Shown here: piece after piece, positions 3,551 through 59,228 of the stretch
Numbering within the stretch: position 1 is the first letter of the stretch
How the letters are laid out: every line of letters begins with the position of its first letter
From: Candidatus Dadabacteria bacterium
Lineage (GTDB): Bacteria > Desulfobacterota_D > UBA1144 > Nemesobacterales > Nemesobacteraceae
Reading direction: 5' to 3'
DNA: 64,000 bases
NCBI GenBank assembly: GCA_009837205.1
Contig: VXTZ01000022.1
Span: forward strand, 70,560 to 134,559
Made by a program: the position numbers and the translations under genes
The notes under the pieces: generated by a model
What the model saw: the letters and a program-made list of their open reading frames with translations, nothing else
Told to the model about the DNA's origin: nothing
Databases searched by the model: none

Positions 3551-4912
3551 TCAGCCGATCTCATTGATCGTTTCCCTAAGGGTTTTTTCCACGGTTTCCC
3601 TTATTTCCGCGAGTCTTGATTCCGTCTGAGCTTCAAAACGAAGCACCAGGGCTGGCTGGGTGTTGGATGCCCGGAGAAGGCCCCATCCGTCCGGATACTC
3701 AACCCTGACTCCATCTATGTCAACCACTTCGTTTTGCTCCCCGAGTTTTTTCTTTACCGCTTCCGTTACCTGAAACTTGATTTCATCGGGACAATCCACT
3801 CTTATCTCCGGGGTTGCGAAGGTCTTAGGTAGTCCTGTAAGCAGTTCCGAGGCCTTCTTTCCCGTTTTCGAGAGAATTTCAAGAAACCGAAGTCCAGCGT
3901 AAAGAGCGTCGTCGTATCCGAAAAACCTGTTTTTAAAGAAGATGTGGCCACTCATTTCTCCACCGAGTTCGGCACCCTCCTTTTTCATCTTGTCCTTGAT
4001 TACCGAGTGGCCGGTTTTCCACATGATGGGATTTCCGCCGGCTTCCCGTATCTTGGAGAAAAGATTTCCTGAACACTTAACGTCCCCTATTATGGTCGCT
4101 CCCGGGTTCGTTTCGAGAAGATCGAGCGAATAGACAAGTAGCAGCATGTCTCCGCTCATTGAGTTTCCCTGCTCATCGACGATTCCTATCCTGTCCGCGT
4201 CCCCGTCAAACGCCAAGCCCACGTCGAGACCGGCTTCCACGATCTTTTTCTTTATGTCGGAGAGGTTCTCCTCGACCGTGGGGTCGGGGTGGTGGTTCGG
4301 AAAATCCCCGTCGGGGTCCATGTATAGCTCATGAACTTCGCAGCCGAATCTTCTGAGTATCTGCGGGCAGGCCACTCCGGCGGTTCCGTTGCCGCCGTCG
4401 GCCGCGACTTTTATCCCCGGTTCTATATGAAGATTCTCCTCGAAAAATTCAAGGTAGCTCTCAATTATATCTGCCTGTTTCTTTCTGCCCTTCCCTGTTT
4501 TGAACTTTCCCTCTTCGACCGATTCTCTTATTTTCTGTATGCCTTCGCCGAAAAGGGAGTTCTGCCCGACGCACATTTTAAGCCCGTTGTACTCAGAGGG
4601 ATTGTGGCTGGCGGTTACCATCACCCCGCCGTCAACGCCTGAGGTAAAGGTGGAGAAATAAACCATCGGGGTCGTTACCATTCCTATGTCGACCACGCTA
4701 ACGCCGGTTGACGTTATTCCTTCGCAGAGCGCGTCCCGAAATGCCGGGGAAGACTTCCTGCAGTCGTATCCAACGGAAACCTCCGATCCCCCGTCCTCGG
4801 CCACCATGGTTCCGTAGGCTTTTCCGATTCTCTCGACGACCTCTTCTGTGATGCTCTCCCCCGCTATGCCCCTTATGTCGTATTCTCTGAATATAGCTTT
4901 GTCGGGAATCAA
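3551..4912 (-). CDS. Phosphomannomutase/phosphoglucomutase (alpha-D-phosphohexomutase family)
   Basis: Active-site TASHNPSEYNGLK and metal-binding DGDADR motifs; 453 aa. Confidence 0.9.
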   Translation of the reverse strand: MIPDKAIFREYDIRGIAGESITEEVVERIGKAYGTMVAEDGGSEVSVGYDCRKSSPAFRDALCEGITSTGVSVVDIGMVTTPMVYFSTFTSGVDGGVMVTASHNPSEYNGLKMCVGQNSLFGEGIQKIRESVEEGKFKTGKGRKKQADIIESYLEFFEENLHIEPGIKVAADGGNGTAGVACPQILRRFGCEVHELYMDPDGDFPNHHPDPTVEENLSDIKKKIVEAGLDVGLAFDGDADRIGIVDEQGNSMSGDMLLLVYSLDLLETNPGATIIGDVKCSGNLFSKIREAGGNPIMWKTGHSVIKDKMKKEGAELGGEMSGHIFFKNRFFGYDDALYAGLRFLEILSKTGKKASELLTGLPKTFATPEIRVDCPDEIKFQVTEAVKKKLGEQNEVVDIDGVRVEYPDGWGLLRASNTQPALVLRFEAQTESRLAEIRETVEKTLRETINEIG

Positions 4913-5020
4913 CGTTAACGTAACTCCTTTATTTTTTAAGCCCTTAATTATAATATCCCCGGGGATTTATAAAAGGCGTTCTTCTTGACTTTAGTTTTTC
5001 GAGTCTTATCATTTCCTTCC

Positions 5021-6508
5021 ATGGTTTCTCCCTCCTATGAACAGTTCCTAGAGAACCTCGAACACGGGAATCTCGTACCCGTATGGGAGGAAGTTCTGGC
5101 CGATTACGACACTCCGGTTTCGGTTTTCAGGAAGATAGACTCGCCCGGTTACTCCTTTCTATTCGAAAGCGTGGAGGGCGGAGACAAGTGGGCGCGCTAC
5201 AGCTTTCTGGGCACGGAACCCTCGGTGGTATTCCGCTCGAAGGGCCAAAGCATCGAGATAATGTACTCGGACGGGGAAACCGAAACGTTCACGGGCGACC
5301 CGATTCTGGCGTTGCGGGACCTGCTTTCACGATACAGGCCGGTTTCTTCGGAGGAACTTCCGAGATTTCACGGTGGGGCAGTCGGTTACTTCGGTTACGA
5401 CATAATCAGATTTATAGAGGATATTCCCGATACCTCTCCTGATGAGCTCAAGGTCTGGGACTCCGTTTACATGGTAATGGATACCGTTTTGGCATTTGAT
5501 AACGTTACGAGCAAGATAAAGATCATCTCAAATGCCTATGTTCCCGACATTAAAAATGCGAGGGAGGAGTACGAAAAATCCCTTACGAAAATAGCCGAGC
5601 TTAAAAGCAGGCTTAGAAATTCGCTTAGCGAAAGGTTTACCAACGGTATTCCTCAAGATGTTGGCGAGGAAAAATTCAAGATCGAATCCAATTTCGAACC
5701 CGCACACTTCAAAGATGCGGTTCTCAGAACCAAGGAGTACATAAAATCAGGGGACATAATACAGGCAGTGATCTCCCAGAGATGGAAGACGGACCTGAGG
5801 GTCGATCCTTTCGATCTCTACAGGGCGCTCAGGATACTAAACCCTTCTCCGTACATGTTTTTTCTGAGGATGGGTGACGAGATACTCACAGGATCTTCTC
5901 CGGAGGTGATGGTAAGGGTCGAGGGGGAAAGAATCGCAAGCCGTCCGATAGCCGGGACGCGGCCGAGAGGAAAAACCGTCTCCGAGGACGAAAGCCTCGC
6001 GGCCGAACTCATTGCGGACCCCAAGGAGAGGGCCGAGCACATAATGCTCGTTGATCTCGCGAGAAACGATCTGGGAAGAGTTTCCAACACGGGCTCGGTC
6101 AAAGTGGACGATTTCATGATCGTGGAGAGATATTCCCACGTGATGCATATAGTTTCGAACGTGACGGCTCTGATTGCCGAGGGAGTGGATGCCTTTGACG
6201 TCATAAAGGCGACTTTTCCCGCGGGCACTCTTTCCGGAGCGCCGAAGGTAAGGGCAATGGAGATAATCGAGGAAACCGAGCCGACGACGAGAGGAGCATA
6301 CGGGGGATGCGTCTGCTACTTCAGTTTTTCGGGCAACATGGACAGTTGCATAACCATAAGAACGTTCGTGATAAAAGACGGCAAAATCTACATACAGGCG
6401 GGGGCTGGCATAGTGGCAGATTCGGATCCTGAAACCGAGTACCAGGAAACGGTTAACAAGGTAAAGGCCTTGGTGAATTCGGTTGAGCTTGCGGAGGAGG
6501 GACTCTGA
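5021..6508 (+). CDS. trpE: Anthranilate synthase component I; the track ORF begins at a TTG at 4985 and the ATG at 5021 is the alternative start
   Basis: Chorismate-binding-enzyme motifs (LVDLARNDLGRV, GTLSGAPKVRAMEII); about 500 aa. Confidence 0.9.
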   Translation: MVSPSYEQFLENLEHGNLVPVWEEVLADYDTPVSVFRKIDSPGYSFLFESVEGGDKWARYSFLGTEPSVVFRSKGQSIEIMYSDGETETFTGDPILALRDLLSRYRPVSSEELPRFHGGAVGYFGYDIIRFIEDIPDTSPDELKVWDSVYMVMDTVLAFDNVTSKIKIISNAYVPDIKNAREEYEKSLTKIAELKSRLRNSLSERFTNGIPQDVGEEKFKIESNFEPAHFKDAVLRTKEYIKSGDIIQAVISQRWKTDLRVDPFDLYRALRILNPSPYMFFLRMGDEILTGSSPEVMVRVEGERIASRPIAGTRPRGKTVSEDESLAAELIADPKERAEHIMLVDLARNDLGRVSNTGSVKVDDFMIVERYSHVMHIVSNVTALIAEGVDAFDVIKATFPAGTLSGAPKVRAMEIIEETEPTTRGAYGGCVCYFSFSGNMDSCITIRTFVIKDGKIYIQAGAGIVADSDPETEYQETVNKVKALVNSVELAEEGL

Positions 6509-7098
6509 TGACCGGGAACAAAAGGAAAGTGATTCTGATGATTGATAATTACGATTCCTTTACCTACAACTTGGTCCACTATCTGGGGGAACTCGGTCAG
6601 CAGATCGAGGTGAGGAGAAACGACAGTCTTGATTTGGGTTTCGTGGATGATCTTGACCCCGACATAATCGTAATCTCTCCCGGGCCCTGCACTCCCAAAG
6701 AGGCCGGGCTTTCGGTCGACATAATAAAAAGGTATGTCGGGGAAAAACCCATTCTCGGCGTCTGCCTGGGTCACCAGGCGGTGGGCTATGCATACGGGGC
6801 GAACATAATCCGGGCAGAGAGGCTTCTGCACGGAAAAACTTCCCCGATCCTTCACGACGGAAAAACCATCTATAAGGATCTTCCAAATCCCTTTGAAGCT
6901 ACGAGATACCATTCACTTCTGGTGGAAGAGGCATCCCTTCCGTCCGACTTCGAAATTTCCGCTTGGACCAAGGAGGGTGAAATCATGGGGATAAGGCACA
7001 GAGAACTTCCTGTTGAGGGCGTTCAGTTCCACCCCGAGTCCATCCTTACGGAGTGCGGGAAGGATCTTCTAAGAAACTTTATCGATTGCTATGGGTAA
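6508..7098 (+). CDS. trpG: Anthranilate synthase component II (class I glutamine amidotransferase)
   Basis: GVCLGHQ catalytic Cys motif and HPES; start overlaps the trpE stop (TGATG). Confidence 0.9.
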   Translation: MTGNKRKVILMIDNYDSFTYNLVHYLGELGQQIEVRRNDSLDLGFVDDLDPDIIVISPGPCTPKEAGLSVDIIKRYVGEKPILGVCLGHQAVGYAYGANIIRAERLLHGKTSPILHDGKTIYKDLPNPFEATRYHSLLVEEASLPSDFEISAWTKEGEIMGIRHRELPVEGVQFHPESILTECGKDLLRNFIDCYG

Positions 7099-7100
7099 AG

Positions 7101-7128
7101 CCGATACGGCTTTCCCTTTTTTCCCTGC
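7101..7128 (+). terminator. Rho-independent terminator after trpG
   Basis: GCCGatacGGC hairpin followed by tttcccttttttcc. Confidence 0.5.
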
Positions 7129-7366
7129 TTGAGAACCCCTTTCGACTTATTAACATATTTAGAGCATAAGACTGCATTTTGACCAGCTTTTTCCCCAAAT
7201 GCGGTCCTGAACCGAAAAAGCGGTTTACGGTCTGTTTTTACTTGACCACATTTCAGTGTGAGCGCAAAGTTCTGAAGGAGTTAAGTCTGTTAAGCCATGT
7301 CTGAGTTGGTTAAACAAAGAGAAGTTTTAAGAGAGCGGGATTCGAGTCCGTTTCGCAGGAGGTCAG

Positions 7367-9142
7367 ATGGGCCTTCTGGTTGAAGCTTTCATTTTTCTGC
7401 TGGCGACGATTGTTGTTGTTCCTGTCTGCCGTAAGTTCGGATTGAGCAGCGTGCTTGGCTACCTGCTTGTTGGATTGCTGATCGGTCCAGGCGTGTTCGG
7501 GCTTGTGGGCAATGCAACGGAAGTTCTGCACTTCGCTGAGTTTGGAATCGTTCTGTTGATGTTTCTCATCGGTCTCGAACTTCGTCCGCATCGTCTCTGG
7601 ACCATGCGGAGATTTCTCTTCGGGCTGGGTACAACCCAGATCCTTATCACCTCAGTCGTCATTGCGGTGTTCTGTTTCATGTTGCTGGGGATGGGGACGC
7701 CTGCGTCAATACTGATCGGGTTCTCTCTTGCTCTTTCAAGTACGGCATTTGTCGTGCAGTGGCTCGGGGAGCACAGGGAATTCAACAGGCCCCATGGACG
7801 TGCGGCTTTCGGCACGCTGCTTATGCAGGATGTCGCCGTTATCCCTGCAATAGCCTTAATAGGCATCTTGTCTTCTAAGCCCGGGGATTCGGCGTCGTTG
7901 AACTTGCTGCTTCTTATCGCTGTTGTGGCTGGATTCGTGGTTGCTCGGTTTACGCTTCGCCCCGCCCTGCGTTTTGTTGCCTCCACGGGAATCCATGAAC
8001 TTTTCACGGCCGCCGCGCTTACGCTTGTGACAGGCGCCGCCTTGGCGATGCATAGCATCGGTTTTTCAATGGGGCTCGGGGCTTTCGTGGCGGGCGTTAT
8101 GGTTGCCGATTCTGAGTATCGCCACCAGCTTGAAGCGGACGTAATGCCCTTTAAGGGGCTGCTTGTGGGTCTTTTCTTCATTGCGGTCGGCATGTCGGCC
8201 AACCTGGGTTTGTTGATCAGCAAGCCGCTTTTGATCGTCGGACTGACTGCGGTTCTCATGGTCGTAAAGTCGCTCGTTATATACCCGCTTGCCAGATTGC
8301 AGGGTCTTAGGCACGATGAAGCGGTAAGGACAGGACTTGTGCTTTCCCAGGGCGGGGAGTTTGCCTTTATTCTGTTTACAATAGGCGTTTCGGCGCAGCT
8401 TGTAGATCAATTCGTGGTCGATATTGCCGTTTTGGTGGTAACGTTGTCAATGGCGGCAACACCTTTTCTCGTTGCGCTCGGTTCCCGGTTCGGTGCCGAA
8501 AAGGACAGTGCACCCGCTCCTTTAGAGGAAACCCATGGATCGCAAAATTCCGTTATCATCGTAGGGTTTGGTCCGTTCGGCCAGACCGTAGCTCGGATAC
8601 TGACCATACTTGAAATTCCATTCACGGTGATTGAACTCGATCCCAAGAGGGTTGACTTCGTTCGTCAGTTTGCAAGCGAAACATACTATGGCAACGCGTC
8701 GAGCCTGCGGGTTCTGCTATCTGCTCATATTGACCGAGCTCCTGCGATCGTCGTGGCGATCGACGATGTCGAATCGTCTCTGAAAATAGTCAGTCAGGTA
8801 TCTAATTCCTTTCCGAACCTTAAAATTATGGCGCGCGCTAGGAATCGTTTTCACGAAATAAAGCTCCGCGAGCTTGGAGTGACCTCCGTGATTCGCGAGA
8901 CTCTGCTTTCAAGCCTTGCTCTTTCAACCCAACTGCTTGAGCATCTGGGGTTACCCCAGTCCGATGCGGCGGAGATAATCCAAGCTTTTCGGGAACACGA
9001 TGCCCAAGCTCTGGATAATCAGATGGCGGTTTACCACGATAAAACCGGGTTTCCTGAAGATGTGTTTGATACGACGCAGGAACTAAAGGAATTGTTCAAG
9101 GAAGATAAAAAAACCAGTCTGCGCGTCGAAAAGAAAACTTGA
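7367..9142 (+). CDS. KefB/KefC-family (CPA2) K+/H+ antiporter with a C-terminal RCK/TrkA-N domain
   Basis: N-terminal Na+/H+ exchanger helices and a GFGPFGQ Rossmann motif of the RCK domain; about 45 percent similar to E. coli KefC by eye; codon usage (CTG-rich Leu) differs from its neighbours. Confidence 0.85.
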   Translation: MGLLVEAFIFLLATIVVVPVCRKFGLSSVLGYLLVGLLIGPGVFGLVGNATEVLHFAEFGIVLLMFLIGLELRPHRLWTMRRFLFGLGTTQILITSVVIAVFCFMLLGMGTPASILIGFSLALSSTAFVVQWLGEHREFNRPHGRAAFGTLLMQDVAVIPAIALIGILSSKPGDSASLNLLLLIAVVAGFVVARFTLRPALRFVASTGIHELFTAAALTLVTGAALAMHSIGFSMGLGAFVAGVMVADSEYRHQLEADVMPFKGLLVGLFFIAVGMSANLGLLISKPLLIVGLTAVLMVVKSLVIYPLARLQGLRHDEAVRTGLVLSQGGEFAFILFTIGVSAQLVDQFVVDIAVLVVTLSMAATPFLVALGSRFGAEKDSAPAPLEETHGSQNSVIIVGFGPFGQTVARILTILEIPFTVIELDPKRVDFVRQFASETYYGNASSLRVLLSAHIDRAPAIVVAIDDVESSLKIVSQVSNSFPNLKIMARARNRFHEIKLRELGVTSVIRETLLSSLALSTQLLEHLGLPQSDAAEIIQAFREHDAQALDNQMAVYHDKTGFPEDVFDTTQELKELFKEDKKTSLRVEKKT

Positions 9143-46057: not shown

Positions 46058-46269
46058 TCTTGACTCCTCCAGGTGCTGGTAGATAGCTTTCCCCGGAAGA
46101 GCGGCTAAATGAATGAACACATAGGGCGGAAATAAGAAAATGCGCGAATGCGCCGGAAATAAAAAATGTGTTTTTAATCGCCATACGCCTAACTCCCGAG
46201 GCAGAGCCACTAGATTGACTCAGGCAGGTCTTCCGACTTAAAGGGCCGCCTGTTATCAAAACAGAGCAA

Positions 46270-46415
46270 CTTTTCCAGATACGGCCTTCCCGGCTGTATT
46301 AAAGCCAGTGACCCGAAGCGCAAGCACGCTTCGCATGGGCTGGAAAAAACCCTTATTACGGCTACGGGAACAGTTCGGGACTTTCACCCGATTCCCTTAA
46401 CCTGAATCTAAATAC
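46270..46415 (-). promoter_or_regulatory. Cobalamin (B12) riboswitch in the 5' leader of the TonB-dependent receptor
   Basis: The minus strand reads AAGGGAATCGGGTGAAAGTCCCGAACTGTTCCCGTAGCCGTAA ... GTCACTGGC ... AGCCGGGAAGGCC, matching the conserved cobalamin-riboswitch core and B12 box. Confidence 0.7.
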
Positions 46416-46490
46416 AATGGTACAGGCTGGCTGTGGAGATGTCAAAGGCTCCCAGTCGACGGGAAGGCGTAATCAGGAATCGCCTTGTGT

Positions 46491-49182: not shown

Positions 49183-50460
49183 GTGCTGATCCCTGGGATG
49201 AGCGGGGCGGTAAGCACAACTTTCATAGCGGGCGTAAAGGCGGTGGTAAAGGGAGTGGGAAGGCCCATCGGCTCCCTGACGCAGATGGGGAAAATCAGGC
49301 TCGGCAAAAGAACCGAGAAGAACTTTCCTCTCATAAAAGATTTGGTTCCGCTGGCCGAAATCCAGGACATGGTGTTTGCCGGATGGGACATACACGATGA
49401 AGACTGCCACGCCTCGGCGCTTCGGGCCGGAGTGCTCAGTCCCGAACTTCTCGGGAAAATAAGACGGGATCTTGAAAAAGAGTCACCTATGCGGGCTGTT
49501 TTCGATAACAGGTACGTCCGTAATCTCAAGGGTTCCTACGTAAAAAGGGGCAAGACGAAGATGCATCTTGCCGAGGCCCTGATCAGGGACATAAAGAGAT
49601 TCCAGAGGGAAAACGATATCGAAAGGTTGGTAATGCTCTGGTGCGGGAGTACCGAGGTATATCTTGAGCCGTCGGAAGTTCATGAAACCATAGAGAGTTT
49701 CGAGAAGGGGCTAAGGGAAAATCACGACGATATTCCCCCGAGCATGATCTACGCCTACGCGGCCATAAAATGCGGCGCCTCCTACGGGAACGGGGCCCCT
49801 AATCTATCCGTGGACATCCCCGCGCTTCAGCAGCTCGCGATTGAAAACGAGGTTCCAATAGCCGGCAAAGACTTCAAAACCGGCCAGACACTCATGAAGA
49901 CTATTCTGGCTCCGGGTCTTAAAAGCAGGATGCTCGGGCTCAACGGGTGGTTTTCAACCAATATACTGGGTAACCGGGACGGAGAGGTGCTTGATGATCC
50001 CGGTTCTTTCAAAACCAAGGAAGAAAGCAAGCTGGGTGCACTTGAGTACATATTTCAGCCCGAGATAAATCCTGAGCTTTACTCGGATTACTACCACAAG
50101 GTAAGAATAAACTACTACCCGCCGCGCGGAGACGAAAAAGAGGCGTGGGACAATATAGATGTTTTCGGATGGCTTGATTATCCCATGCAGATAAAGATCA
50201 ATTTTCTCTGCCGTGACAGTATACTCGCCGCACCGGTGGTTCTTGATCTCGTGCTGTTCCTAGATCTTGCGCATCGCGCCGGTATCTACGGGGTCCAGGA
50301 GTGGCTTTCCTTTTATTTCAAAAGTCCCATGGTCGATAAGAGGCTCTACCCAGAGCACGATCTTTTCGTTCAGTTCACCAAGCTGCAGAACACGCTTCGC
50401 TACCTGCAGGGCGAGGAACTGATAAGCCATCTGGGGATTGATTACTACGGTTTCGGCTAA
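49183..50460 (+). CDS. myo-Inositol-1-phosphate synthase, archaeal/bacterial type; start ambiguous between TTG 49117 and GTG 49183
   Basis: Rossmann N-terminus (VLIPGMSGAVSTTFIAG) and conserved MIPS core motifs (SYGNGAPN, NGWFSTNILGNRDG). Confidence 0.75.
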   Translation: MLIPGMSGAVSTTFIAGVKAVVKGVGRPIGSLTQMGKIRLGKRTEKNFPLIKDLVPLAEIQDMVFAGWDIHDEDCHASALRAGVLSPELLGKIRRDLEKESPMRAVFDNRYVRNLKGSYVKRGKTKMHLAEALIRDIKRFQRENDIERLVMLWCGSTEVYLEPSEVHETIESFEKGLRENHDDIPPSMIYAYAAIKCGASYGNGAPNLSVDIPALQQLAIENEVPIAGKDFKTGQTLMKTILAPGLKSRMLGLNGWFSTNILGNRDGEVLDDPGSFKTKEESKLGALEYIFQPEINPELYSDYYHKVRINYYPPRGDEKEAWDNIDVFGWLDYPMQIKINFLCRDSILAAPVVLDLVLFLDLAHRAGIYGVQEWLSFYFKSPMVDKRLYPEHDLFVQFTKLQNTLRYLQGEELISHLGIDYYGFG

Positions 50461-50478
50461 GCGGGCCGCGGTTCTGCT

Positions 50479-51624
50479 CTACTGCTTGAGGAAGCTTTCT
50501 AGGTCTTTTCTCACGCCGGAACTTGCGAGTTTCCCGAGGGCGGCTTTTTCTATTTGTCTTATCCTTTCCCTGGTCAGATTGAATCTCTTGCCGATCTCAT
50601 CGAGAGTGTAGGTGCTCTGGCGTCCTATGCCGAAGCGAAGCCTGATGATCTCCTCTTCTCTTTGATTCAGAAGGGTAAGAGCTTCCTTCAGTTTTTCCGC
50701 AAGGGACATCTTCGCTATTATCGTGTCGGGGATTTTAGCTTCCTTATCCGCGACCGAATCAAGAAGCGTGGTCTTCTCCCCGTCGAGAACCGGCGTGTCG
50801 AGGCTTATGGCGTCGTTTGTGGAATTGAGAATCCTGTTTATAACCTCTGCTGAGATTCCCGAAGCCTCGGCTATTTCCTTGGGCGTCGGCTTTCTTCCCA
50901 TTTCCTTGCTAAGCTTTGCACTCGTCTTGTAAACCCTGTTTGCCTGCTCAAGCAAGTAGACAGGGACCTTTATGGTCCTGGTCTGTCCCTGCAGGGCCCT
51001 GAGTATGGCCTGGTGTATCCACCATGAGGCGTAGGTGGAGAACTTGTAGCCTTTTGTGTAATCAAATCTTTCGACCGCGCGCATTAGACCTAGGTTTCCT
51101 TCCTGGATGAGATCCGGAAGCGGCAGGCCTCTGCTCATGTACCTTCTCGAAATCGTTATTACGAGTCTCAGGTTGGCCTTTACGAACTTCTGCTTGAGTT
51201 TGAGTGCCCAGTCGACGTAAATTCTCTCCATAGCGCGCAGGACCGCTATTCTGTGTGCTATCGCACGCGCCTTGGCCGAGTTTTTTCTTGTGCGGATTTT
51301 CTCGTATTTTTCAATGCTCTTGGGAACCTTGGCCATCCTGATTTCGCACATCTTGATTCTCGCGGATATCTCGACTTCCTGTTTCGCGGCGAAAAGAGGC
51401 TCAACGGCCATGTCCTTAAAGTAGACGTAAAGAAGCCGGAGCTGTTCATCGGGGATCCATTTGTCCTTCTCTTTGTCCTTCCCCCTGGGTTTCAGTTCCT
51501 CTTCGTCCGAGCTGTCAAAACTCTCTTCGGTTTCGTTTTCCTCGATGTCGTCGTCAACATCATAGGATTCAAACCCAGAGTCGTGTTCCGCATTATCCTG
51601 AAAATCCTTGTATTTAATGTCCAC
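50479..51624 (-). CDS. Sigma-70 family RNA polymerase sigma factor (RpoD/SigA-like)
   Basis: Acidic N-terminus and regions 2-4 (DLIQEGNLGLMRAVERFD..., TLDEIGKRFNLTRERIRQIE). Confidence 0.85.
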   Translation of the reverse strand: MDIKYKDFQDNAEHDSGFESYDVDDDIEENETEESFDSSDEEELKPRGKDKEKDKWIPDEQLRLLYVYFKDMAVEPLFAAKQEVEISARIKMCEIRMAKVPKSIEKYEKIRTRKNSAKARAIAHRIAVLRAMERIYVDWALKLKQKFVKANLRLVITISRRYMSRGLPLPDLIQEGNLGLMRAVERFDYTKGYKFSTYASWWIHQAILRALQGQTRTIKVPVYLLEQANRVYKTSAKLSKEMGRKPTPKEIAEASGISAEVINRILNSTNDAISLDTPVLDGEKTTLLDSVADKEAKIPDTIIAKMSLAEKLKEALTLLNQREEEIIRLRFGIGRQSTYTLDEIGKRFNLTRERIRQIEKAALGKLASSGVRKDLESFLKQ

Positions 51625-51789
51625 CTTACTCTCTCACCAATTCCCTGATTGAAAAACGGAGGTAACAAAAAAGGTTTTCAAAGCCCGAGCGGGCAATGAA
51701 AATTAGCACCTTCCATCCCTATTAGGGAATTATAAGATTTTTCGTGCTAAAATGTAAGCGTTTTTTTTCCAAGTACGGTTTCGCGGGAA

Positions 51790-52401
51790 TTACTTCGCCT
51801 CGGCGAAGTTCTCCGAAACCTGTTCCCAGTTCACCACATTCCACCACGCCTTCACGTAGTCGGGCCTTCTGTTCTGGTAGTTCAGATAATATGCATGCTC
51901 CCAGACGTCGAGGCCCAGAATGGGTTTCAGTCCCTCGGAAACCGGGTTATCCTGGTTTGGGGTGGATGTTACCACGAGCCCTCCGCCCTCGTCCACGCAA
52001 AGCCACGCCCAGCCGCTTCCGAATCTGGTGGCGGCTGCTTTGGAGAATGTCTCGGCGAAAGCGTCGAAGCTTCCGAACGCGGAATCTATGGCATCGGCAA
52101 GCTCACCCGAAGGCGTTCCTCCGGAACCGGGAGCCATGCACGGCCAGAAAAGGCTGTGATTCGCGTGCCCTCCGCCGTTGTTTCTTACCGCGGTTCTTAT
52201 GTCTTCGGGAACGGAGTCAAGATCGCCGAGCAGTTCCTCAAGCGATTTGTCCGCCAACTCCGGATGTTTCTCCAGCGCTGCGTTTAAGTTGTTTACGTAC
52301 CCTTGATGATGCTTTGAGTGATGTATTCTCATTGTTTCCGCGTCTATATGCGGTTCCAAAGCGTCATGATCATAAGGAAGATCAGGTAATTCGTGCGCCA
52401 T
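51790..52401 (-). CDS. Fe/Mn superoxide dismutase
   Basis: HHSKHH, and a DVWEHAYY metal-ligand motif. Confidence 0.9.
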
Positions 52402-53041
52402 TTTCCTCTCCTTTTAATCTCTCGAAATAAAAAGCCGAATTTGGGATTATATATACAACTGCGGACAGTTGCAAGTAGATTATACCAGAATGTCAGGGGA
52501 ATCCTATGCTTGTTAGCGAATTCCGAAGCATACCAAGCCGGGGAGTCCACAGACCCTGGACACGGGCAGTTTCTACCGAAAGGCTGCTCTTTTTGCCTGT
52601 TTCGTCAGTACGTGCGACCCTCACGACAACCTCCCGCGCATTGAACTGCGGAAACCCAGCCTTTGAGGCTGACAGTACGAAACCCATGTCTACTGTTTAT
52701 ACCAGCTTCGGAGGGAAAAAGTCAGCGATTCTTTTTAACTTCCTGTGAATTTACGATTAAATCACTGACCAAGCATAGCGTGGAATCGCCCTGACCAGAA
52801 GGGTACTGGAAGTAAATTGAATTAACCGCCGTTTTGCAATGAATATAGATACGTTTCCATTCAGCCTGACTCAGACTCTCCCAGCAACCCTGCACTTGTC
52901 TCTATGTACGTAAAAATGGTGGCAACATGTCTTCGACCGTAAGCCAAGAAGCGGTCGAAAAGATGGAACAGATAAAATGGGACCGCCGGAATTAACCGTC
53001 TTTCTTACGGAATCAGAGAGACTCTAGCCGGAAAATTCGCT

Positions 53042-54286
53042 TTACTTCTTTGACCGGTCTCTCCACCAAAACGCAATACAGATTGAGAACACTACCAAAA
53101 ACAGGTTAAAAACAGCACTCCAAGGCTTGCTGTCCGTCCCCGCAATGGCGCATCCGTCATCACCATCACTATCCATGTCGCCAGCGCCATCCGGCTCGAA
53201 CGGTTCATAAGTTCCGGAACCAAAAATGAAAACTGTTCGCGGCCGGTGGTCGAATGTCACCGCTTCAACATAACTGGTCTTAAGCGATCTTCCGGGTGAT
53301 CTCCCCTCCATATCAACATCGTCTTCCTCTATAGTCGGATTGTCCCATTTATACTTGACAAAACCCGACTCCCCGTGCTCTCCCGCAACTTTAAGAATCT
53401 CGGCACCGATGTCAACTTCATCCTCGTCAAGGATATTCTCAAAAGGACTCCCCGTAAACTCCGGATTGTTTCCGTTAAGGATCACAAAAGGAGCTCTATT
53501 CCCTATTTTAGCCATGATAAAGAGGTATATGGAGCCTTCCTTCCAATGTCCTCTTCCCAGACATGACGCCTTATTAAGGGCATCTTGGAGCCCCTGCGTA
53601 CCTTGTGGTGTCTGCTCTAGCTTTAGCAAACCATCAATTCTCTTGATCGCCTCCTTTACAAAGTCCCTCAAGTCTTCGTCTGCTCCACTCTCGTTTACCT
53701 GTTGGGCCGTTACAGCAGGTTCATAATCTGGACAGTCAGGGGGTGTTATAGCCGGGTCGTCCTTTGCATGATTAAAACCACCGATTAAGATGCCCTTTAA
53801 CTCTCGGTTGATAGAGTCATATTGAACTGCGCAACTCCACCTATCCATATCTCCGTACTGGACACAAGCTGCTTCCCCCGGAGCGACTTGTTCAAGCTTG
53901 GCAAGGAGCTCTCGTACAGTCTCAAGACCGGCTATGGAGTTTCCAAACAAGTCTTTGGTATAGATTCCATGATTTATTATGGTTCCACCACTTTTGCTAA
54001 TTGTAATCAGGTATACAGAATCACTGTTCCATGTTTCCTGCGTTCTCATTTGCCTGTTGAAAGCCGAAAGCTCGGCACGTCCTCCCGCAACGGCCTCATC
54101 CATGTGCCGTTTTGCGTGCAATACAAAGCTTTTCATTGTAGGTTCATCGCTAGCAGAAGCCGCCTCGCTAGCCGTTGTTTGAGGATCGTCATGGGATCCA
54201 TCGGCAAAAGCGGAAATGCCCGGGAAAAAAGTTATCATAGCAAACATCACGCCTAATGTGATTACAAAACCTCGAAAGCTCTTCAT
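53042..54286 (-). CDS. Secreted protein with two Cache/PAS-like periplasmic repeats and a C-terminal tripartite sorting signal
   Basis: Signal peptide; two repeated modules (SVYLITISKSGGTIINHG and GSIYLFIMAKIGNRAPFVILNG); C-terminus is DGCAIAG followed by a TM helix and RDRSKK. Confidence 0.5.
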   Translation of the reverse strand: MKSFRGFVITLGVMFAMITFFPGISAFADGSHDDPQTTASEAASASDEPTMKSFVLHAKRHMDEAVAGGRAELSAFNRQMRTQETWNSDSVYLITISKSGGTIINHGIYTKDLFGNSIAGLETVRELLAKLEQVAPGEAACVQYGDMDRWSCAVQYDSINRELKGILIGGFNHAKDDPAITPPDCPDYEPAVTAQQVNESGADEDLRDFVKEAIKRIDGLLKLEQTPQGTQGLQDALNKASCLGRGHWKEGSIYLFIMAKIGNRAPFVILNGNNPEFTGSPFENILDEDEVDIGAEILKVAGEHGESGFVKYKWDNPTIEEDDVDMEGRSPGRSLKTSYVEAVTFDHRPRTVFIFGSGTYEPFEPDGAGDMDSDGDDGCAIAGTDSKPWSAVFNLFLVVFSICIAFWWRDRSKK

Positions 54287-54380
54287 AATACCCCCTCCTG
54301 AATTACAATTCTGAAATAGGTTGCACCTTTATAAAAACAATTGAGGCTGTAAAAGAACGGAATGTTTAACTTAAGGGCTT

Positions 54381-55109
54381 TTAAATCTTGTAATTCGTAA
54401 TTTTTTTCTCATCAAAAAGCCCTAGAAACCTCGTTATATCCAGCTTGATTTGTACATCGTTCCCGGGATGTTTTGGATCCGTCTTTGCCAGCTTAACCCG
54501 TTGTCCGTTTCCGCCCTTCCTCTGAAACACGATACAACCGCCTATCATGATATTTCCGCCTCGGCTTGTAAACTGGATGTCCGAGCCTATCAGCTTGAGA
54601 ACATCCTTCATTTTCCATATCCGCATGACGCTCTCACACGCATCATAAAGCACAAGGATTTCTCTTGAGGGGTTAGCGGAGAAAGCATTAGAAACTATCC
54701 GCTTTGCCCGCACTTCAAAAATCTGTTTCCATCTCTGTCTTGTCTCTTGAGGAAACAAAAGCGATTTTGTGTTGGCGCTCTTGGACAATACCAAGTCCTT
54801 AAGTTCGCTTCTCTCCGCTTGCGACAGGTCAAACCTCTCGGCAAAGGTATCAATAGGCATTCGAGTTACCTGATTGTATCCCTTGCCCTTGTAAGCCTTC
54901 ACATTGGCGTCCATAGTCCGGTCTCCGGCAAAGCTCATTTTCACATCGCACTTTGCCGTTTCTCCGCCTGTCTGCATTGATATCAGATACCTTCCCTCAA
55001 TGCCGAAAGCGTCTTGTATAGTCTTAATCACGCGGGGATGGTCGCCTACACTGTTCTTGAACAGTATCTCCACATTGCTTCCCCTGTATGCGTTTCTGTT
55101 CCCTCTCAT
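54381..55109 (-). CDS. Putative type II restriction endonuclease (passenger; inferred from context)
   Basis: 242-aa protein whose start overlaps the MTase stop (ATGA) and whose stop abuts the left IR; no motif assigned. Confidence 0.35.
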   Translation of the reverse strand: MRGNRNAYRGSNVEILFKNSVGDHPRVIKTIQDAFGIEGRYLISMQTGGETAKCDVKMSFAGDRTMDANVKAYKGKGYNQVTRMPIDTFAERFDLSQAERSELKDLVLSKSANTKSLLFPQETRQRWKQIFEVRAKRIVSNAFSANPSREILVLYDACESVMRIWKMKDVLKLIGSDIQFTSRGGNIMIGGCIVFQRKGGNGQRVKLAKTDPKHPGNDVQIKLDITRFLGLFDEKKITNYKI

Positions 55110-56029
55110 ATCACTATGCTATCATAAGCCCTTGTTACCATGTCGGGAATAACGGCGTTGCCAAGTTGCCTGTAGCCTCTCGCTCCAACATCGGTAACAT
55201 GATTAACATCAAAACCCATAAGCCTCTTACACTCGGAAATAGACAACCGCCTTACCACGCCGTCAACCAGATATAAGCCTGTTCTAGACCCTACGCCGCC
55301 ACTATCCGCCGCAAGCGTAATGGCGTGTCCGTTAGGATGGTATATTCTCTCACCTTGCCCACCCTTGTTAAGATGTCCTATTCTGATCGGCTTGTGTGCA
55401 GGTTCGGGTTCACCATCTTTTTCAATCGTGATGTCATCCCTTCGGATTATCAAACGCTCATCCACAAAATCATCAAGCACATCCTTTAGAAATATATCTT
55501 TGCGGTCGGGTTTCGGTTCTTTATACCGCAACCCAGTACCTTTTCTCACACAAGCGAAATAGACCCTTTCTCTTTTCTGGGGAATGCCGTAATCGCTTGC
55601 GTCAAGTAGGGAATAGTGAACGGAATAACCCGCCTCGTCCAGCCTTGCTTCAATCGTTTTCATTACATCTCCGCCGTCCACTGTAAGGATGTTTCGTACA
55701 TTCTCAAGCAGAAGCACTAACGGCTTGTGATATTCCACTACACGCAAGATTTCATAAAAGAGCCTCCCCCTGCGGTCATCCATACCGCCTTTTTTTCCGG
55801 CTATGCTGAAACTCTGACAGGGGAAACCGGCACAGAGAATATCATGCTTAGGTATCTCCCGGGCATTGATTTCACAAATATCGCCCCTGGGATTGTCATT
55901 GAAATTTCTTTGGTAAACCATCCGAGCGTGTTCGTCTATCTCTGAAGAAAAAACACACTTCATTCCCAGCCTTTCCATTGACACCCGGAAACCGCCTATG
56001 CCCGCAAACAGGTCTATGAAGTTATACAC
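55106..56029 (-). CDS. DNA (cytosine-5)-methyltransferase
   Basis: Motif I FIDLFAGIGGF, motif IV GFPCQ, ENV, QKRERV; proposed GTG start at 56029 lies only 7 bp from the transposase stop, so the track ORF is over-extended. Confidence 0.85.
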   Translation of the reverse strand: MYNFIDLFAGIGGFRVSMERLGMKCVFSSEIDEHARMVYQRNFNDNPRGDICEINAREIPKHDILCAGFPCQSFSIAGKKGGMDDRRGRLFYEILRVVEYHKPLVLLLENVRNILTVDGGDVMKTIEARLDEAGYSVHYSLLDASDYGIPQKRERVYFACVRKGTGLRYKEPKPDRKDIFLKDVLDDFVDERLIIRRDDITIEKDGEPEPAHKPIRIGHLNKGGQGERIYHPNGHAITLAADSGGVGSRTGLYLVDGVVRRLSISECKRLMGFDVNHVTDVGARGYRQLGNAVIPDMVTRAYDSIVI

Positions 56030-56954
56030 GCCCCGCCACCGCTCCGAGCATCGCATCAAAAACAACTTCCGGCTTTTCTTCTCGGGCATTGTACTTAAAC
56101 ACCGATTCCGCAATGTAGAGGGGAAGATACTTGACTGTGTAGTTATGGTGCGTTCCATACCAAGCCCGCTTTACAAGAGACCAGTAGCCTTCCACGCTGT
56201 TAGTGTGAACAGTCTTGTTTTTCACATATTCCTTAGCCGAGTGATTAACCCTCTTGTGCGGGGCAAGAGCTCCGATCCTGTTATAGATCGGGTATTCGTC
56301 AGTGTGTATTTCACTGTCTCCGAGCTTTACATTCTCAAGTATCATGTTTCTTACGAAACCTTGCCTGTATTGCCCTTTGGCAACCGGCTTGGCTATCACC
56401 CTGCCTTTCCGTTCAACCATGCCTACAACCATCGCCTTGTCCGTCCCTCTGCCCCTCTTGCGGATGTTTTCGGGGCCTTGATGACGGGGTTTTCCGCCGA
56501 TATAGGTTTCGTCTATTTCTACGATTCCCTGAAGTATCGGAGAACGCATACCGAGTAAGCCTTTTCTTATCCTTTGTGAGAGCCTGTAAGCCGAAGGAAC
56601 GCTTATTCCAAGATGTCGTGATAACTGACGGCTTGAGATTGATTTCTTTGCTTCGGCAAGCAGGGATATTGCCAAAAACCATTTCCAAAGCGGAATTTTG
56701 GTTTTGTGCATTATTGTGTTTACGGTCGGAGAGAAGGAATTACCGCAATCGTAGCAAGCAAGCCTTCTGCGTCTCCCTTTTTCCTTTGCCTTTATGCCCG
56801 TCTTGATGCTTCCGCAGTAGGGGCAGGCAGGTTCCTTGTCCCAGCGGAGCTTGCATAGGTAGTCCGTGCAGGCATCATCGTTATTGGCAAAGTGTTCTAT
56901 AACCTTTATACTGTTTACTGTGTTTAACCTCCTAAGATGGTATAAGAATAACAC
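56022..56954 (-). CDS. IS1595-family transposase (N-terminal zinc ribbon plus DDE domain)
   Basis: CPYCGS...CYDCG zinc ribbon, then the DDE_Tnp_IS1595 region (IVEIDETYIGGK...). Confidence 0.8.
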   Translation of the reverse strand: MLFLYHLRRLNTVNSIKVIEHFANNDDACTDYLCKLRWDKEPACPYCGSIKTGIKAKEKGRRRRLACYDCGNSFSPTVNTIMHKTKIPLWKWFLAISLLAEAKKSISSRQLSRHLGISVPSAYRLSQRIRKGLLGMRSPILQGIVEIDETYIGGKPRHQGPENIRKRGRGTDKAMVVGMVERKGRVIAKPVAKGQYRQGFVRNMILENVKLGDSEIHTDEYPIYNRIGALAPHKRVNHSAKEYVKNKTVHTNSVEGYWSLVKRAWYGTHHNYTVKYLPLYIAESVFKYNAREEKPEVVFDAMLGAVAGRV

Positions 56955-57214
56955 AGTTTCAGTAAAATGTCAAGCCCTTAAGTTAAACATTCCGTAAAAG
57001 AATAATCTGGAATCTCTTTGGGCAAGTCCAGCGAAACCAGTTCTCGCATTCCCCCACTGCCTTCTTGGGTCTGGAAGCTTCGCCGGATAATGCAAAACCC
57101 CAAAATATCTTCACAGTCTTATATAATTTACTCTCTGCAGTAGATTATGCCAAAAATTGTCCCCCGTTTTTACATATAGTTACGATAAAGTAAATTTAAA
57201 CTCCTGAGGTTTCC

Positions 57215-57952
57215 ATGTCGGAAAACATAATCGAAATGACGGACGTGTGTAAGTCCTTTGACGGAAAGGTTGTTCACAGGGGAATAAATCTTTCCGTAAG
57301 AAGCGGAGAGATCATTACCGTCTTGGGGGAGAGTGGAGTCGGGAAAAGCGTTTTGCTAAAGGAGATAAACGGTCTCGTTAAACCCGACAGCGGAAAGGTC
57401 GTGGTTCTGGGAGAGGATACTGTGCAGATGGACGAGAAGCAGCTTGTGAAAATAAGAAAGGAAACGGGTATGCTGTTTCAGGGTTCCGCCCTTTTTGACT
57501 CGCTTAGCGTGGAGGAGAATATAGCTTATCCCCTGATTGAAAACTCGGATCTTCCCCCTGAGGAGATAAAAGAAGCAGTTGCCCGAAACCTCGAACTGGT
57601 CGATCTTCCGGGAATCGAAGACAAGTACCCCGGGGAACTGAGCGGAGGGATGAAAAAAAGAGTGGCTCTTGCAAGAGCAATCGCCACCCGTCCGAAGATT
57701 CTTCTCTACGACGAGCCCACGACCGGTCTTGATCCTCCCAATATAAAAAGGATTGCCAAGCTGATAAAGAGCATGAGAGACCGGCTCAGGATAACCGGGG
57801 TCGTCATTACCCACGACATAGGCACCGCCTACGAGGTTTCTGACAGGATAGCGTTTCTTTACGAGGGAGAAATTGTGTTCACGGGAACTGTGCCCGAGGC
57901 CCGCGAGAGCAACATTTCCACATTCAGGAATTTTCTCGATAGCAAGATGTAG
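57215..57952 (+). CDS. MlaF/MkL-like ABC transporter ATP-binding protein
   Basis: Walker A GESGVGKS, LSGGMKKRVALARA signature and the MlaF-like C-terminal extension. Confidence 0.8.
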   Translation: MSENIIEMTDVCKSFDGKVVHRGINLSVRSGEIITVLGESGVGKSVLLKEINGLVKPDSGKVVVLGEDTVQMDEKQLVKIRKETGMLFQGSALFDSLSVEENIAYPLIENSDLPPEEIKEAVARNLELVDLPGIEDKYPGELSGGMKKRVALARAIATRPKILLYDEPTTGLDPPNIKRIAKLIKSMRDRLRITGVVITHDIGTAYEVSDRIAFLYEGEIVFTGTVPEARESNISTFRNFLDSKM

Positions 57953-58032
57953 AGGCATTAAAACCTGATTTTTGTCGGAGAATCTGCACCAACTCTTGAG
58001 TTGCAAGAGCGGAAAGGAGCTTTTCCAAAGAA

Positions 58033-58521
58033 TTATGGTTTCGGTGGATCCGGGCTTAGGCACGCTGAAGCCATGGCTGCTATACCTTCTTTTCTTCCTG
58101 TAAAACCCAGGCCTTCGGCTGAAGTTCCCTTTACGTTTACGGCGTCGCTCGAAATTCCTAGGGCATCGGCGATTTTCTCCTCCATAGCGGATGAGTGAGG
58201 AGAAATTCTTGGCTCCTCGCACACCACCGTGCAATCAATATTTTCTATACGGTAGCCCTTGCCTGCCATCATCCGGGCGACCCGGGAGAGAATTGAGAGG
58301 CTTGAAGCATCCTTGTATTTTGGGTCGTTCGGCGGAAAGTGTTTTCCCAGGTCTCCCTCGCCGATAGCTCCCAAAATAGCGTCGGCAACCGCGTGGGAAA
58401 GCACGTCAGCGTCGGAATGACCGGCAAGCCCCCGGTAGCCCTGAATCTCAACGCCGCCCAGTATGAGCGCTCTTTCCTCGCAAAACGCGTGCGCGTCAAA
58501 CCCCGTTCCTATTCTGTACAT
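58033..58521 (-). CDS. ispF: 2-C-methyl-D-erythritol 2,4-cyclodiphosphate synthase
   Basis: FDAHAF, SDADVLSHA and GHSDAD motifs. Confidence 0.9.
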   Translation of the reverse strand: MYRIGTGFDAHAFCEERALILGGVEIQGYRGLAGHSDADVLSHAVADAILGAIGEGDLGKHFPPNDPKYKDASSLSILSRVARMMAGKGYRIENIDCTVVCEEPRISPHSSAMEEKIADALGISSDAVNVKGTSAEGLGFTGRKEGIAAMASACLSPDPPKP

Positions 58522-59224
58522 TGACCACTTCTCCTTTGCTTACGATAAGCTGAGCTATTTTGAAGTCGGCTGCGGTTGTGATTTTTATGTTAAGGTCGTC
58601 TCCCGCTACCACGCTTACCCTTATTCCCTTCGCTTCGGCAAGCGCCGATTCGTCGGTCGCGTCAAGATCCGCGATGCCGTCTGAGCAATAGATTTCCGCG
58701 AGTATCTCCCGGCGAAAAGCCTGCGGAGTCTGGGCTCTCCAGAGTTTCTCCCTTGGAACCGTTTCCGAAATAAACGGTCCGGGCTCATGTGCCCGCTTCA
58801 ACGTGTCCGTAACGGGAACGGCGCATATGCAAGCGCCTGTGCGGGCGCATCCCTCTATGACTCTTTTGATCGTGTCGTTATCAACGAAAGGTCTCGCAGC
58901 ATCGTGAATTAGCACCATGTCACTGTCCGGTGGTGTGGCGCGAAAACCGTTTCTTACGGATACATGCCTTTTTTCGCCCCCGGCGACTATCGAGGTGATT
59001 TTTTCAAACCCGAAGCTCTCGAGCAGTTCCCTTGAGCGCGAAATTTCGTCCTCGGGCACTACGACCACTACGCTTGTTATGAGTCCGCTCGACTCGAAAG
59101 TCGAAAGGCAGTAGGTAAAAAGAGGTTTTCCGCCGAGTGCGGCGAACTGCTTTTTCCCATGAGTGGAGAATCTTTTAGAAAGACCGGCGGCCGCCACTAC
59201 GGCTGAGACTTTTGGGGTACTCAC
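58496..59224 (-). CDS. ispD: 2-C-methyl-D-erythritol 4-phosphate cytidylyltransferase
   Basis: AVVAAAGLSKRF, and the 3' overlap with ispF. Confidence 0.9.
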   Translation of the reverse strand: MSTPKVSAVVAAAGLSKRFSTHGKKQFAALGGKPLFTYCLSTFESSGLITSVVVVVPEDEISRSRELLESFGFEKITSIVAGGEKRHVSVRNGFRATPPDSDMVLIHDAARPFVDNDTIKRVIEGCARTGACICAVPVTDTLKRAHEPGPFISETVPREKLWRAQTPQAFRREILAEIYCSDGIADLDATDESALAEAKGIRVSVVAGDDLNIKITTAADFKIAQLIVSKGEVVNVQNRNGV

Positions 59225-59228
59225 AGGG

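Follow-up and report, generated by a model that had tools for sequence, protein, structure and literature searches.

Do a transposase gene and a restriction-modification (R-M) gene pair that lie together between two inverted repeats form one mobile unit, and did that unit arrive as a whole? This question is raised by a locus in a 64-kb stretch of a Candidatus Dadabacteria contig (here termed the window; it is the whole stretch that was analyzed, and coordinates refer to it unless another locus is named). The host is a sponge-associated bacterium. A preliminary description of this DNA had proposed that an IS1595-family transposon carries here a C5-cytosine methyltransferase (MTase) and a coupled putative restriction endonuclease (REase). 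The element extends from 54358 to 56994 and is a self-contained unit of 2,637 bp with its own transposase and an R-M pair. Our analyses indicated that it is very probably an IS1595-family transposon that delivered an M.HhaI-like/HinP1I-like R-M pair. The earlier proposal of a mobile unit carrying a whole type II R-M pair was supported by an empty site in sister strains and by homology of the MTase to M.HhaI and of the REase to HinP1I.

Comparison of filled and empty sites

The empty site was located via contigs encoding exactly the flanking ABC ATPase. A route via orthologues of the flanking 414-aa cache-domain gene was unproductive, the nearest (∼60% identity) not being syntenic. Assemblies L131 (GCA_009840825.1), L132, and L133 were free of the element, with 283 bp separating the 414-aa cache-domain gene from the ABC ATPase gene. 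Assemblies L125 to L127 and L134 contained the element at the same site as the window; sponge metagenomes hold both filled-site strains, such as GCA_009841925.1 (SRR9841438), and empty-site strains, such as GCA_009840825.1 (SRR9841447). In blastn comparisons, positions 50001 to 54357 of the window matched positions 432 to 4788 of L131 at 99.84% identity without gaps, and positions 56995 to 61000 matched positions 4781 to 8786 at 99.93%, the two L131 matches overlapping by exactly 8 bp. The sequence of the empty site is ...attgaggctgTAAAAGAAtaatctgg..., with a single copy of TAAAAGAA. As this site lacks the 2,637 bp and retains one TAAAAGAA, the whole unit was inserted precisely with an 8-bp duplication, which bears out the earlier view of an insertion as a whole with duplication of the target. 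The insertion was recent, because it is polymorphic among strains whose flanks are 99.8 to 99.9% identical.

These comparisons fixed the boundaries of the element. The left copy of the target-site duplication (TSD) occupies 54350 to 54357 and the right copy, positioned by the empty-site comparison, 56995 to 57002; the sequence is thus present twice here and once in the empty site (L131, 4781 to 4788). Inside the duplication lie the terminal inverted repeats (IRs). The IR at the REase end (IRR; 54358 to 54380, plus strand) has the sequence CGGAATGTTTAACTTAAGGGCTT and is a perfect 23-bp match to the IR at the transposase end (IRL; 56972 to 56994, minus strand). The preliminary description had given perfect IRs of 24 bp, and positions 54357 to 54380 and 56972 to 56995 are indeed complementary at 24 of 24 bases; the true IR is, however, 23 bp, because the 8-bp duplication supplies the 24th complementary base. 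A 6-bp direct repeat, AAAAGA, had also been suggested as the target duplication. The junctions and the empty site revised this to the 8 bp of TAAAAGAA, so that the IR pair is flanked by a TSD, albeit a longer one than first described. Only two occurrences of the 23-mer were found in the 64-kb window, even with three mismatches allowed, and shuffled sequences were expected to contain none. Short IRs with an 8-bp TSD are characteristic of the IS1595 family. The ends of the ISNha5 subgroup, whose members we take to be large and always passenger carrying, are presumably CGGnnTT and resemble CGGAATGTT of the window element, a resemblance that serves as a lead and not as a test. Three minus-strand open reading frames (ORFs) occupy the interval between the IRs, in agreement with the three co-oriented genes first reported. 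A composite transposon was considered and rejected: there is a single transposase gene, and the two IR copies in the window directly bound the unit.

The transposase and its putative operon

The transposase ORF (56022 to 56954, minus strand), recognized by Pfam, NCBIfam, and alignment, is an open frame of 310 aa. It matched the catalytic domain DDE_Tnp_IS1595 (PF12762) at 4.8e-37 over 152 of 153 profile positions, the NCBIfam IS1595 model (NF033547) at 1.3e-51 with 175.5 bits against a cut-off of 75, and the zinc-ribbon domain Zn_ribbon_IS1595 (PF12760) at 9e-9 with 35.6 bits against a cut-off of 25.4. The assignment to an IS1595-type transposase with a zinc ribbon and a DDE domain, made previously from the sequence, therefore stands. 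An alignment with 17 relatives indicated that all of the invariant residues are kept (E146-x-D148-E149, D219, H250-x-N252-x-x-E255, and K262-R263) and that the zinc-ribbon cysteines C44, C47, C67, and C70 are present.

A consensus scan detected a promoter-like site (56945 to 56973, minus strand) consisting of TTGACA, a 17-nt spacer, and TG-TATTCT, reading into the transposase, MTase, and REase genes (tnp-M-R). This site was the best in the region, with 10 of 12 matches and an extended −10 element. The −35 element TTGACA straddles the inner edge of IRL and is kept in relatives. These features suggest that tnp-M-R is probably a single operon transcribed from a promoter at the edge of IRL.

The methyltransferase

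The second gene (55106 to 56029, minus strand), identified by Pfam and by alignment with M.HhaI, encodes an M.HhaI-like C5-cytosine DNA methyltransferase of 307 aa if translated from the GTG at 56029. This start, the choice of the gene callers, overlaps the transposase stop by 8 nt (GTGTATAA), and an alternative ATG at 56056 would give a protein of 316 aa and an overlap of 35 nt. The MTase start had been placed 7 bp away from the transposase stop; with either start codon, there is an overlap instead. The protein matched Pfam DNA_methylase at 4.5e-75, residues 13 to 311 of M.HhaI at an E value of 1.4e-87, and M.HaeIII at 2e-39. The C5 motifs FAGIGGF, GFPCQSFS, ENV, QKRER, and GNAV are all present and, together with the near-full-length alignment to M.HhaI, confirm the earlier recognition of a complete C5-MTase. 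The recognition loop KGGQGERIY of M.HhaI is identical in this protein, and a second loop, TL.A..GG, is conserved. Because these recognition loops are conserved, the MTase most likely modifies GCGC.

The predicted restriction endonuclease

The third gene (54381 to 55109, minus strand) encodes a 242-aa protein that, on the evidence of profile, hhalign, and fold comparisons, is predicted to be a type II REase with a HinP1I/MspI fold and catalytic residues D55, N69, and K71. Its ATG overlaps the MTase stop by 4 nt (ATGA), and at its other end the gene stops right at the IR, both as originally noted. The protein had no at-threshold match in Pfam, NCBIfam, or PADLOC and no match in PDB by phmmer, and the 72 homologous clusters are all unnamed or labeled 'hypothetical'. 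A profile built from 43 family sequences, searched against PDB, matched R.HinP1I (4.5e-5) and MspI (3.3e-3). An hhalign comparison with the HinP1I sequence, which was identical to 1ynm_A, gave a probability of 95.7% and an E value of 9e-9. An AlphaFold model of the protein (pLDDT of 93.5 and pTM of 0.88) retrieved HinP1I (2fkc_A) as the top Foldseek match (E value of 9.5e-11, TM score of 0.69, and 255 columns), with MspI second (7e-5). The kinship with HinP1I and MspI is visible solely by family profile, hhalign, and fold search; the direct sequence searches found nothing meaningful. On this evidence the 242-aa ORF, previously called a putative restriction endonuclease, is a homologue of HinP1I, and the profile and hhalign matches place it with R.HinP1I and MspI and not in a nonnuclease family.

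The predicted active site is consistent with this assignment, the protein having a HinP1I/MspI-type PD-(D/E)XK fold with a D…(Q/N)-x-K motif. K53, D55, and K71 are invariant and N69 is nearly invariant among the 43 family sequences. These four residues align with K97, D99, N117, and K119 of MspI, and N69-x-K71 aligns with Q81-x-K83 of HinP1I; the D…(N/Q)-x-K residues of the two enzymes are those that we take to be catalytic. Three further motifs, QRKGG, FNQ, and H..N..Q.K, are invariant or nearly so, although the 43 sequences are only 34 to 73% identical, indicating that the REase has been under purifying selection. By homology the enzyme is most likely monomeric and would cut unmethylated GCGC. 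No REase homologues were found in a phage collection; there is thus no evidence from that collection of a phage-borne element.

A family of related elements

The genomic context of REase homologues was surveyed at ∼120 loci in reference genomes and metagenomes. An M.HhaI-like MTase was encoded directly upstream of the REase at nearly all of the loci with enough upstream sequence, and the two genes were adjacent, co-oriented, and overlapping or closely spaced in essentially all such loci with REase identities of at least 33%. A full-length IS1595 transposase was directly upstream of the MTase in at least 14 distinct loci, and the Tnp-M-R order was the same in the unrelated neighborhoods of REase homologues at 73%, 61%, and 57% identity. 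At least 10 independent elements combined this order, with or without a gene for the mismatch endonuclease Vsr, with the terminus CGGAATGTTCACTTTTAGGGC at both ends (0 to 4 mismatches). A mismatch-tolerant scan was required for detection of these ends; the exact IR pattern gave no matches in other loci because substitutions and a 1-nt indel set the ends of the relatives apart from it.

Five elements had perfect 8-bp TSDs, each different and AT rich: TAAAAGAA for the window element, TATTTTTA for L005 (with Vsr inside the left end), AACCTGAA for L008, AAAAATAA for L051 (with Vsr inside the right end), and AAACAATA for L139. For L058 and L045, the duplications matched at 7 of 8 and 6 of 8 positions, respectively. 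Full elements were detected in at least three lineages, namely, Dadabacteria, Thermodesulfobacteriota, and Gammaproteobacteria. The architecture and ends were the same even in L139, from a gammaproteobacterial metagenome-assembled genome; its transposase is only ∼46% and its REase ∼30% identical to those of the window. Remnants were present in Liberibacter and Nitrospinales, solo-end remnants in L036 and L086, and an internally deleted form of 1.1 kb, resembling a miniature inverted-repeat transposable element, in L092 (515 to 1617). The last of these keeps both terminal repeats and joins the transposase N terminus (residues 11 to 158) to the REase C terminus (residues 152 to 240).

Vsr (Pfam, 4.8e-24), the usual partner of 5-methylcytosine (m5C) methylases, was often added as an optional fourth cargo gene (L005, 3708 to 4139, minus strand; L006, 3701 to 4132, minus strand; L051, 4930 to 5253, plus strand; L049, 2663 to 3019, plus strand). 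Its placement varies, being either divergent at the transposase end or downstream of the REase. No Vsr homologue was detectable across the 64-kb window, and the window element is without one. An extra small ORF was found between the MTase and REase genes of L137 to L139. It encodes a Cys-rich protein of 67 aa with an acidic tail in L138 (6849 to 7052) and L137 (6852 to 7055) and one of 85 aa in L139 (6786 to 7043). These ORFs had no Pfam match and could be controller-like regulators of REase expression.

Pairwise identities across 13 elements were correlated for all pairs of proteins (Mantel r of 0.75 for Tnp-R, 0.72 for Tnp-M, and 0.79 for M-R), and 0 of 5,000 permutations reached these values. 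This co-divergence is more in keeping with a unit inherited whole over a long time than with repeated capture. R-M cargo had been described previously as unusual for an IS1595 element; a complete pair is carried, as claimed, but it is not a single odd capture, since the same cargo is found across a widespread, previously unannotated family. In our judgment, the chances are about even that there is an old and undescribed IS1595 transposase clade (∼46 to 100% identity) dedicated to M.HhaI-like and HinP1I-like R-M genes, with or without Vsr. The same odds apply to the co-evolution, within this clade, of the transposase gene with the R-M genes in a single operon with translational coupling.

More-distant M-R(-Vsr) loci without a transposase or recognizable ends were found in termite-gut bacteria, in Rickettsia, and on the linear plasmid lp28-5 of Borreliella, a cultured pathogen. 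In Borreliella burgdorferi N40 (L136, 3049 to 4720; NC_017415.1, 10655 to 12326), the M-R pair has no transposase, and the REase homologue, which is 42% identical and lies beside a DNA cytosine methyltransferase, is annotated as a 'hypothetical protein', a RefSeq annotation that could be improved.

Several loci differed in the state of the MTase or of the surroundings. In L002 (2458 to 3440) and L003 (81 to 1413), a truncated MTase lies upstream of an intact, identical 245-aa REase (P0002); the damage is due to insertion of an IS4-type DDE_Tnp_1 transposase in L002 and to an internal deletion in L003. An intact REase without an intact MTase is unexpected if the enzyme is active, unless another GCGC methylase protects the host. 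A Thermodesulfobacteriota element has an intact MTase of 311 aa in L006 (5069 to 6004), and in the same element in L007 (5065 to 6004; 2.39-Mb chromosome, L007/L011) the MTase is split into 52 and 274 aa, a difference due either to a frameshift or to faulty assembly. This L006/L007 element also has a degenerate left terminal repeat. Two elements lie in dense defense/R-M islands, one with genes for an Mrr-like and an ApeA/HEPN protein, a second C5-MTase with Vsr, and HinfI-like proteins (L008, 1 to 12738) and the other with NgoFVII-like, EcoRII, and N6/N4-MTase genes (L139, 1 to 10897).

Avoidance of GCGC within the elements

The window element contains 1 GCGC site against 8.1 expected, and nine elements pooled contain 15 against 67.4 (ratio of 0.22). 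In the pooled elements, GCGC and GGCC (ratio of 0.20) were the most depleted of the 4-bp palindromes; other ratios were 0.44 for GATC, 0.47 for TCGA, and 0.47 for CCGG. The depletion of GCGC is compatible with repeated entry of the unit into hosts that lack the methylation, and the broad depletion of palindromes suggests selection against the restriction sites of many hosts. The host flanks of the window element exhibited no avoidance of GCGC (212 sites against 211 expected), which is consistent with a recent arrival of the element. The terminal repeats of the window element have no GCGC. Those of L139 (4925 to 4947 and 7785 to 7807) end in ...AGGGCGC, each with a GCGC site, to which the MTase of that element is presumed to be directed, raising the possibility that binding of the transposase to the L139 ends is methylation sensitive.

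Alternative explanations

Several observations weigh against the explanation of this locus as a transposon that delivered an R-M pair, and these concern the transposase start, the distribution of copies, the operon, and the activity of the cargo. The canonical start of the transposase is, in the window, a GTA (56918 to 56916), located 9 nt after the Shine-Dalgarno sequence AGGAGG (56933 to 56928), while seven relatives have at this position an ATG or GTG followed by AAC or AAT. The sole in-frame upstream start is the annotated GTG at 56954. Translation from this GTG was not upheld, as the codon falls inside the predicted promoter, between the −35 and −10 elements, and the relatives start where the window has GTA. 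The transposase of the window copy may, as a result, be barely translated, and the present mobility of this copy is doubtful because of the GTA codon. Furthermore, no other insertion sites of an identical element were detected; every near-identical copy found was at the same locus, with no sign of multiple copies per genome.

These features raise a possibility, to which we assign somewhat less than an even chance, that the unit transposed to this site and is now immobile, surviving in effect as a domesticated R-M system of the chromosome whose ends are relics. The noncanonical start at the correct distance from the Shine-Dalgarno sequence, the position of the alternative GTG, the confinement of near-identical copies to one site, and a truncated transposase call of 175 aa in sister assembly L126 all favor such a loss of mobility. 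On the other side, the transposase ORF is otherwise intact, with 310 codons and all of the catalytic and zinc residues, the IRs are perfect, the insertion is so recent that nearly identical strains still differ in it, and weak noncanonical initiation could suffice for a transposase. Loss of mobility is, in any case, a qualification of the transposon explanation and not an alternative to it: the window copy may be a recent arrival that is now weakly mobile or immobile.

The assignment of the operon and its promoter was made by a consensus scan, and GCGC specificity and nuclease activity are predicted from homology. The identity of the REase to HinP1I is only ∼16%, and its score against Pfam R-HINP1I (PF11463) was 13.9 bits (E value of 0.039), below the cut-off of 25. 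The same profile matched 17 of the 43 REase relatives at E values of ≤1, the best being 3.9e-8. Because it falls below this threshold, the REase is placed in a sister group and not among the Pfam-defined HinP1I members; its family is a divergent sister group of HinP1I. It could be argued, then, that the 242-aa protein is not an active REase and is instead an inactivated nuclease, a nickase, or a DNA-binding regulator, with the cargo consisting of an orphan MTase and an accessory gene. The missing at-threshold assignments in Pfam, NCBIfam, and PADLOC, the low identity to HinP1I, and the persistence in L002 and L003 of the REase beside a truncated MTase, which would be lethal with an active enzyme unless another methylase protects, all point in this direction. 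We nevertheless regard an inactive protein as improbable, since the putative catalytic residues D55 and N69-x-K71 and the associated motifs are invariant or nearly so in the 43 sequences, the full-length fold matches that of HinP1I, the gene is strictly accompanied at dozens of loci by that of an M.HhaI-like MTase, and often by Vsr, and GCGC is depleted inside the elements.

A chance association, in which an IS1595 element inserted beside a resident M-R pair and the IRs bound no single unit, is so unlikely that it can be set aside for this locus on the empty-site comparison: distant M-R(-Vsr) loci without a transposase or recognizable IR (for example, L012 to L020, L022, and L025) do show that the R-M genes can occur without the transposon, but at the empty site all of the 2,637 bp is missing and one 8-bp target is kept, the REase gene ends directly at the distal IR, at least 10 elements share this arrangement and have homologous ends but differing TSDs, and the transposase co-diverges with the MTase and REase.

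Two further observations on the window are unrelated to the element. A cobalamin riboswitch at 46206 to 46420 on the minus strand matched the Rfam model RF00174 over its full length at 71.3 bits, and no tRNA genes were found in the 64 kb.

Proposed mechanism

The delivery of an R-M pair by this transposon could be envisaged as follows. The DDE/zinc-ribbon transposase would bind the 23-bp ends and integrate the unit with an 8-bp staggered cut, a chemistry proposed from that of the family. Transcription from the end-proximal promoter would then proceed through tnp, the MTase gene, and the REase gene, and with this order from one promoter the methylase would be made before the nuclease. The MTase would methylate GCGC, and the REase, probably as a monomer, would cleave unmodified GCGC, as predicted from the homologues of each. 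Where Vsr is present, it would repair T:G mismatches arising from deamination of m5C, a function established for Dcm/Vsr. The host would gain defense against phages and plasmids from the R-M cargo, and the transposon would gain an addiction module that penalizes its loss. The depletion of GCGC within the element would limit self-restriction on arrival in a new host.

Relation to known systems and significance

Passenger-carrying IS1595 elements with 25-bp IRs and 8-bp duplications have been described, namely, tISCpe8 of Clostridium perfringens and MTnSag1 of Streptococcus agalactiae (PMC5704250). The window element resembles them in its IS1595-type DDE transposase, IRs of about 25 bp, 8-bp TSD, and passengers inside the repeats (PMC5704250). 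Their cargo, in contrast, is lincosamide resistance and mobilization functions rather than R-M, and the transposases in plasmid records are no more than 37% identical to that of the window. The window element also differs from these two in that its cargo overlaps tnp translationally and in that a single type of cargo is conserved throughout a clade of transposases.

Transposon-like R-M units were reported from Neisseria gonorrhoeae NCCP11945 and Xanthomonas oryzae by Furuta, Abe, and Kobayashi (2010; NAR 38:2428; PMC2853133). Those units similarly have R-M genes between IRs (26 bp and 65 bp) and an 8-bp duplication and were recognized by empty-site comparison (PMC2853133). The Neisseria unit holds a gene with a transposase motif (COG3677), judged by the authors to be a likely inactivated derivative, and its R-M genes are a truncated type IIG gene and an S subunit (PMC2853133), whereas the pair in the window is a complete classical type IIP system. 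The Xanthomonas unit has no transposase (PMC2853133), whereas the transposase of the window element has complete domains. Each unit was presented as an isolated case, with the authors undecided as to whether a transposase or the R-M system had driven the movement (PMC2853133). The window element, in contrast, belongs to a multilineage family with co-diverging genes.

Benler et al. (2021; PMC8649781) describe Tn7-like transposons with defense-system cargo, including R-M. Tn7-like elements of this kind are large and multigenic, with variable cargo and site-specific targeting machinery. Compared with them, the window element is minimal, having one transposase, a fixed R-M cargo, and AT-rich, nonspecific 8-bp targets.

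With respect to the cargo, the closest known enzymes are those of the GCGC-specific HinP1I/HhaI systems of Haemophilus. The MTase is similar to M.HhaI over nearly its full length, including the target-recognition loops, and the REase shares with HinP1I the HinP1I/MspI fold, the (N/Q)-x-K motif, FNQ, and QRKGG. In the catalytic motif the window REase has N, as in MspI, whereas HinP1I has Q. HinP1I (G/CGC) and MspI are both monomeric enzymes (PMC1874612).

The literature searched contained no account of an IS1595 element with R-M cargo or of an IS1595 clade in which a complete type IIP pair is the conserved cargo, although an ISfinder or REBASE entry is possible. It has long been argued that R-M systems behave as selfish mobile elements, and to our knowledge clear autonomous mobile forms of them are rare. 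The element described here is a minimal transposon with its own transposase and a complete R-M pair, the insertion of which is documented at base resolution against an empty site in the same population. One outcome for annotation is that at least 70 protein clusters now labeled 'hypothetical protein' gain a functional assignment. Three questions are also made testable: how an R-M system becomes established after transposition into an unmethylated genome, whether R-M cargo stabilizes an insertion sequence as an addiction module, and how such units seed defense islands (compare L008 and L139). The element family illustrates how a defense, and addiction, system can move as one self-contained transposon and, if the reading of the clade is true, would constitute a family of 'restriction-modification transposons', the long-postulated autonomous mobile form of R-M systems.

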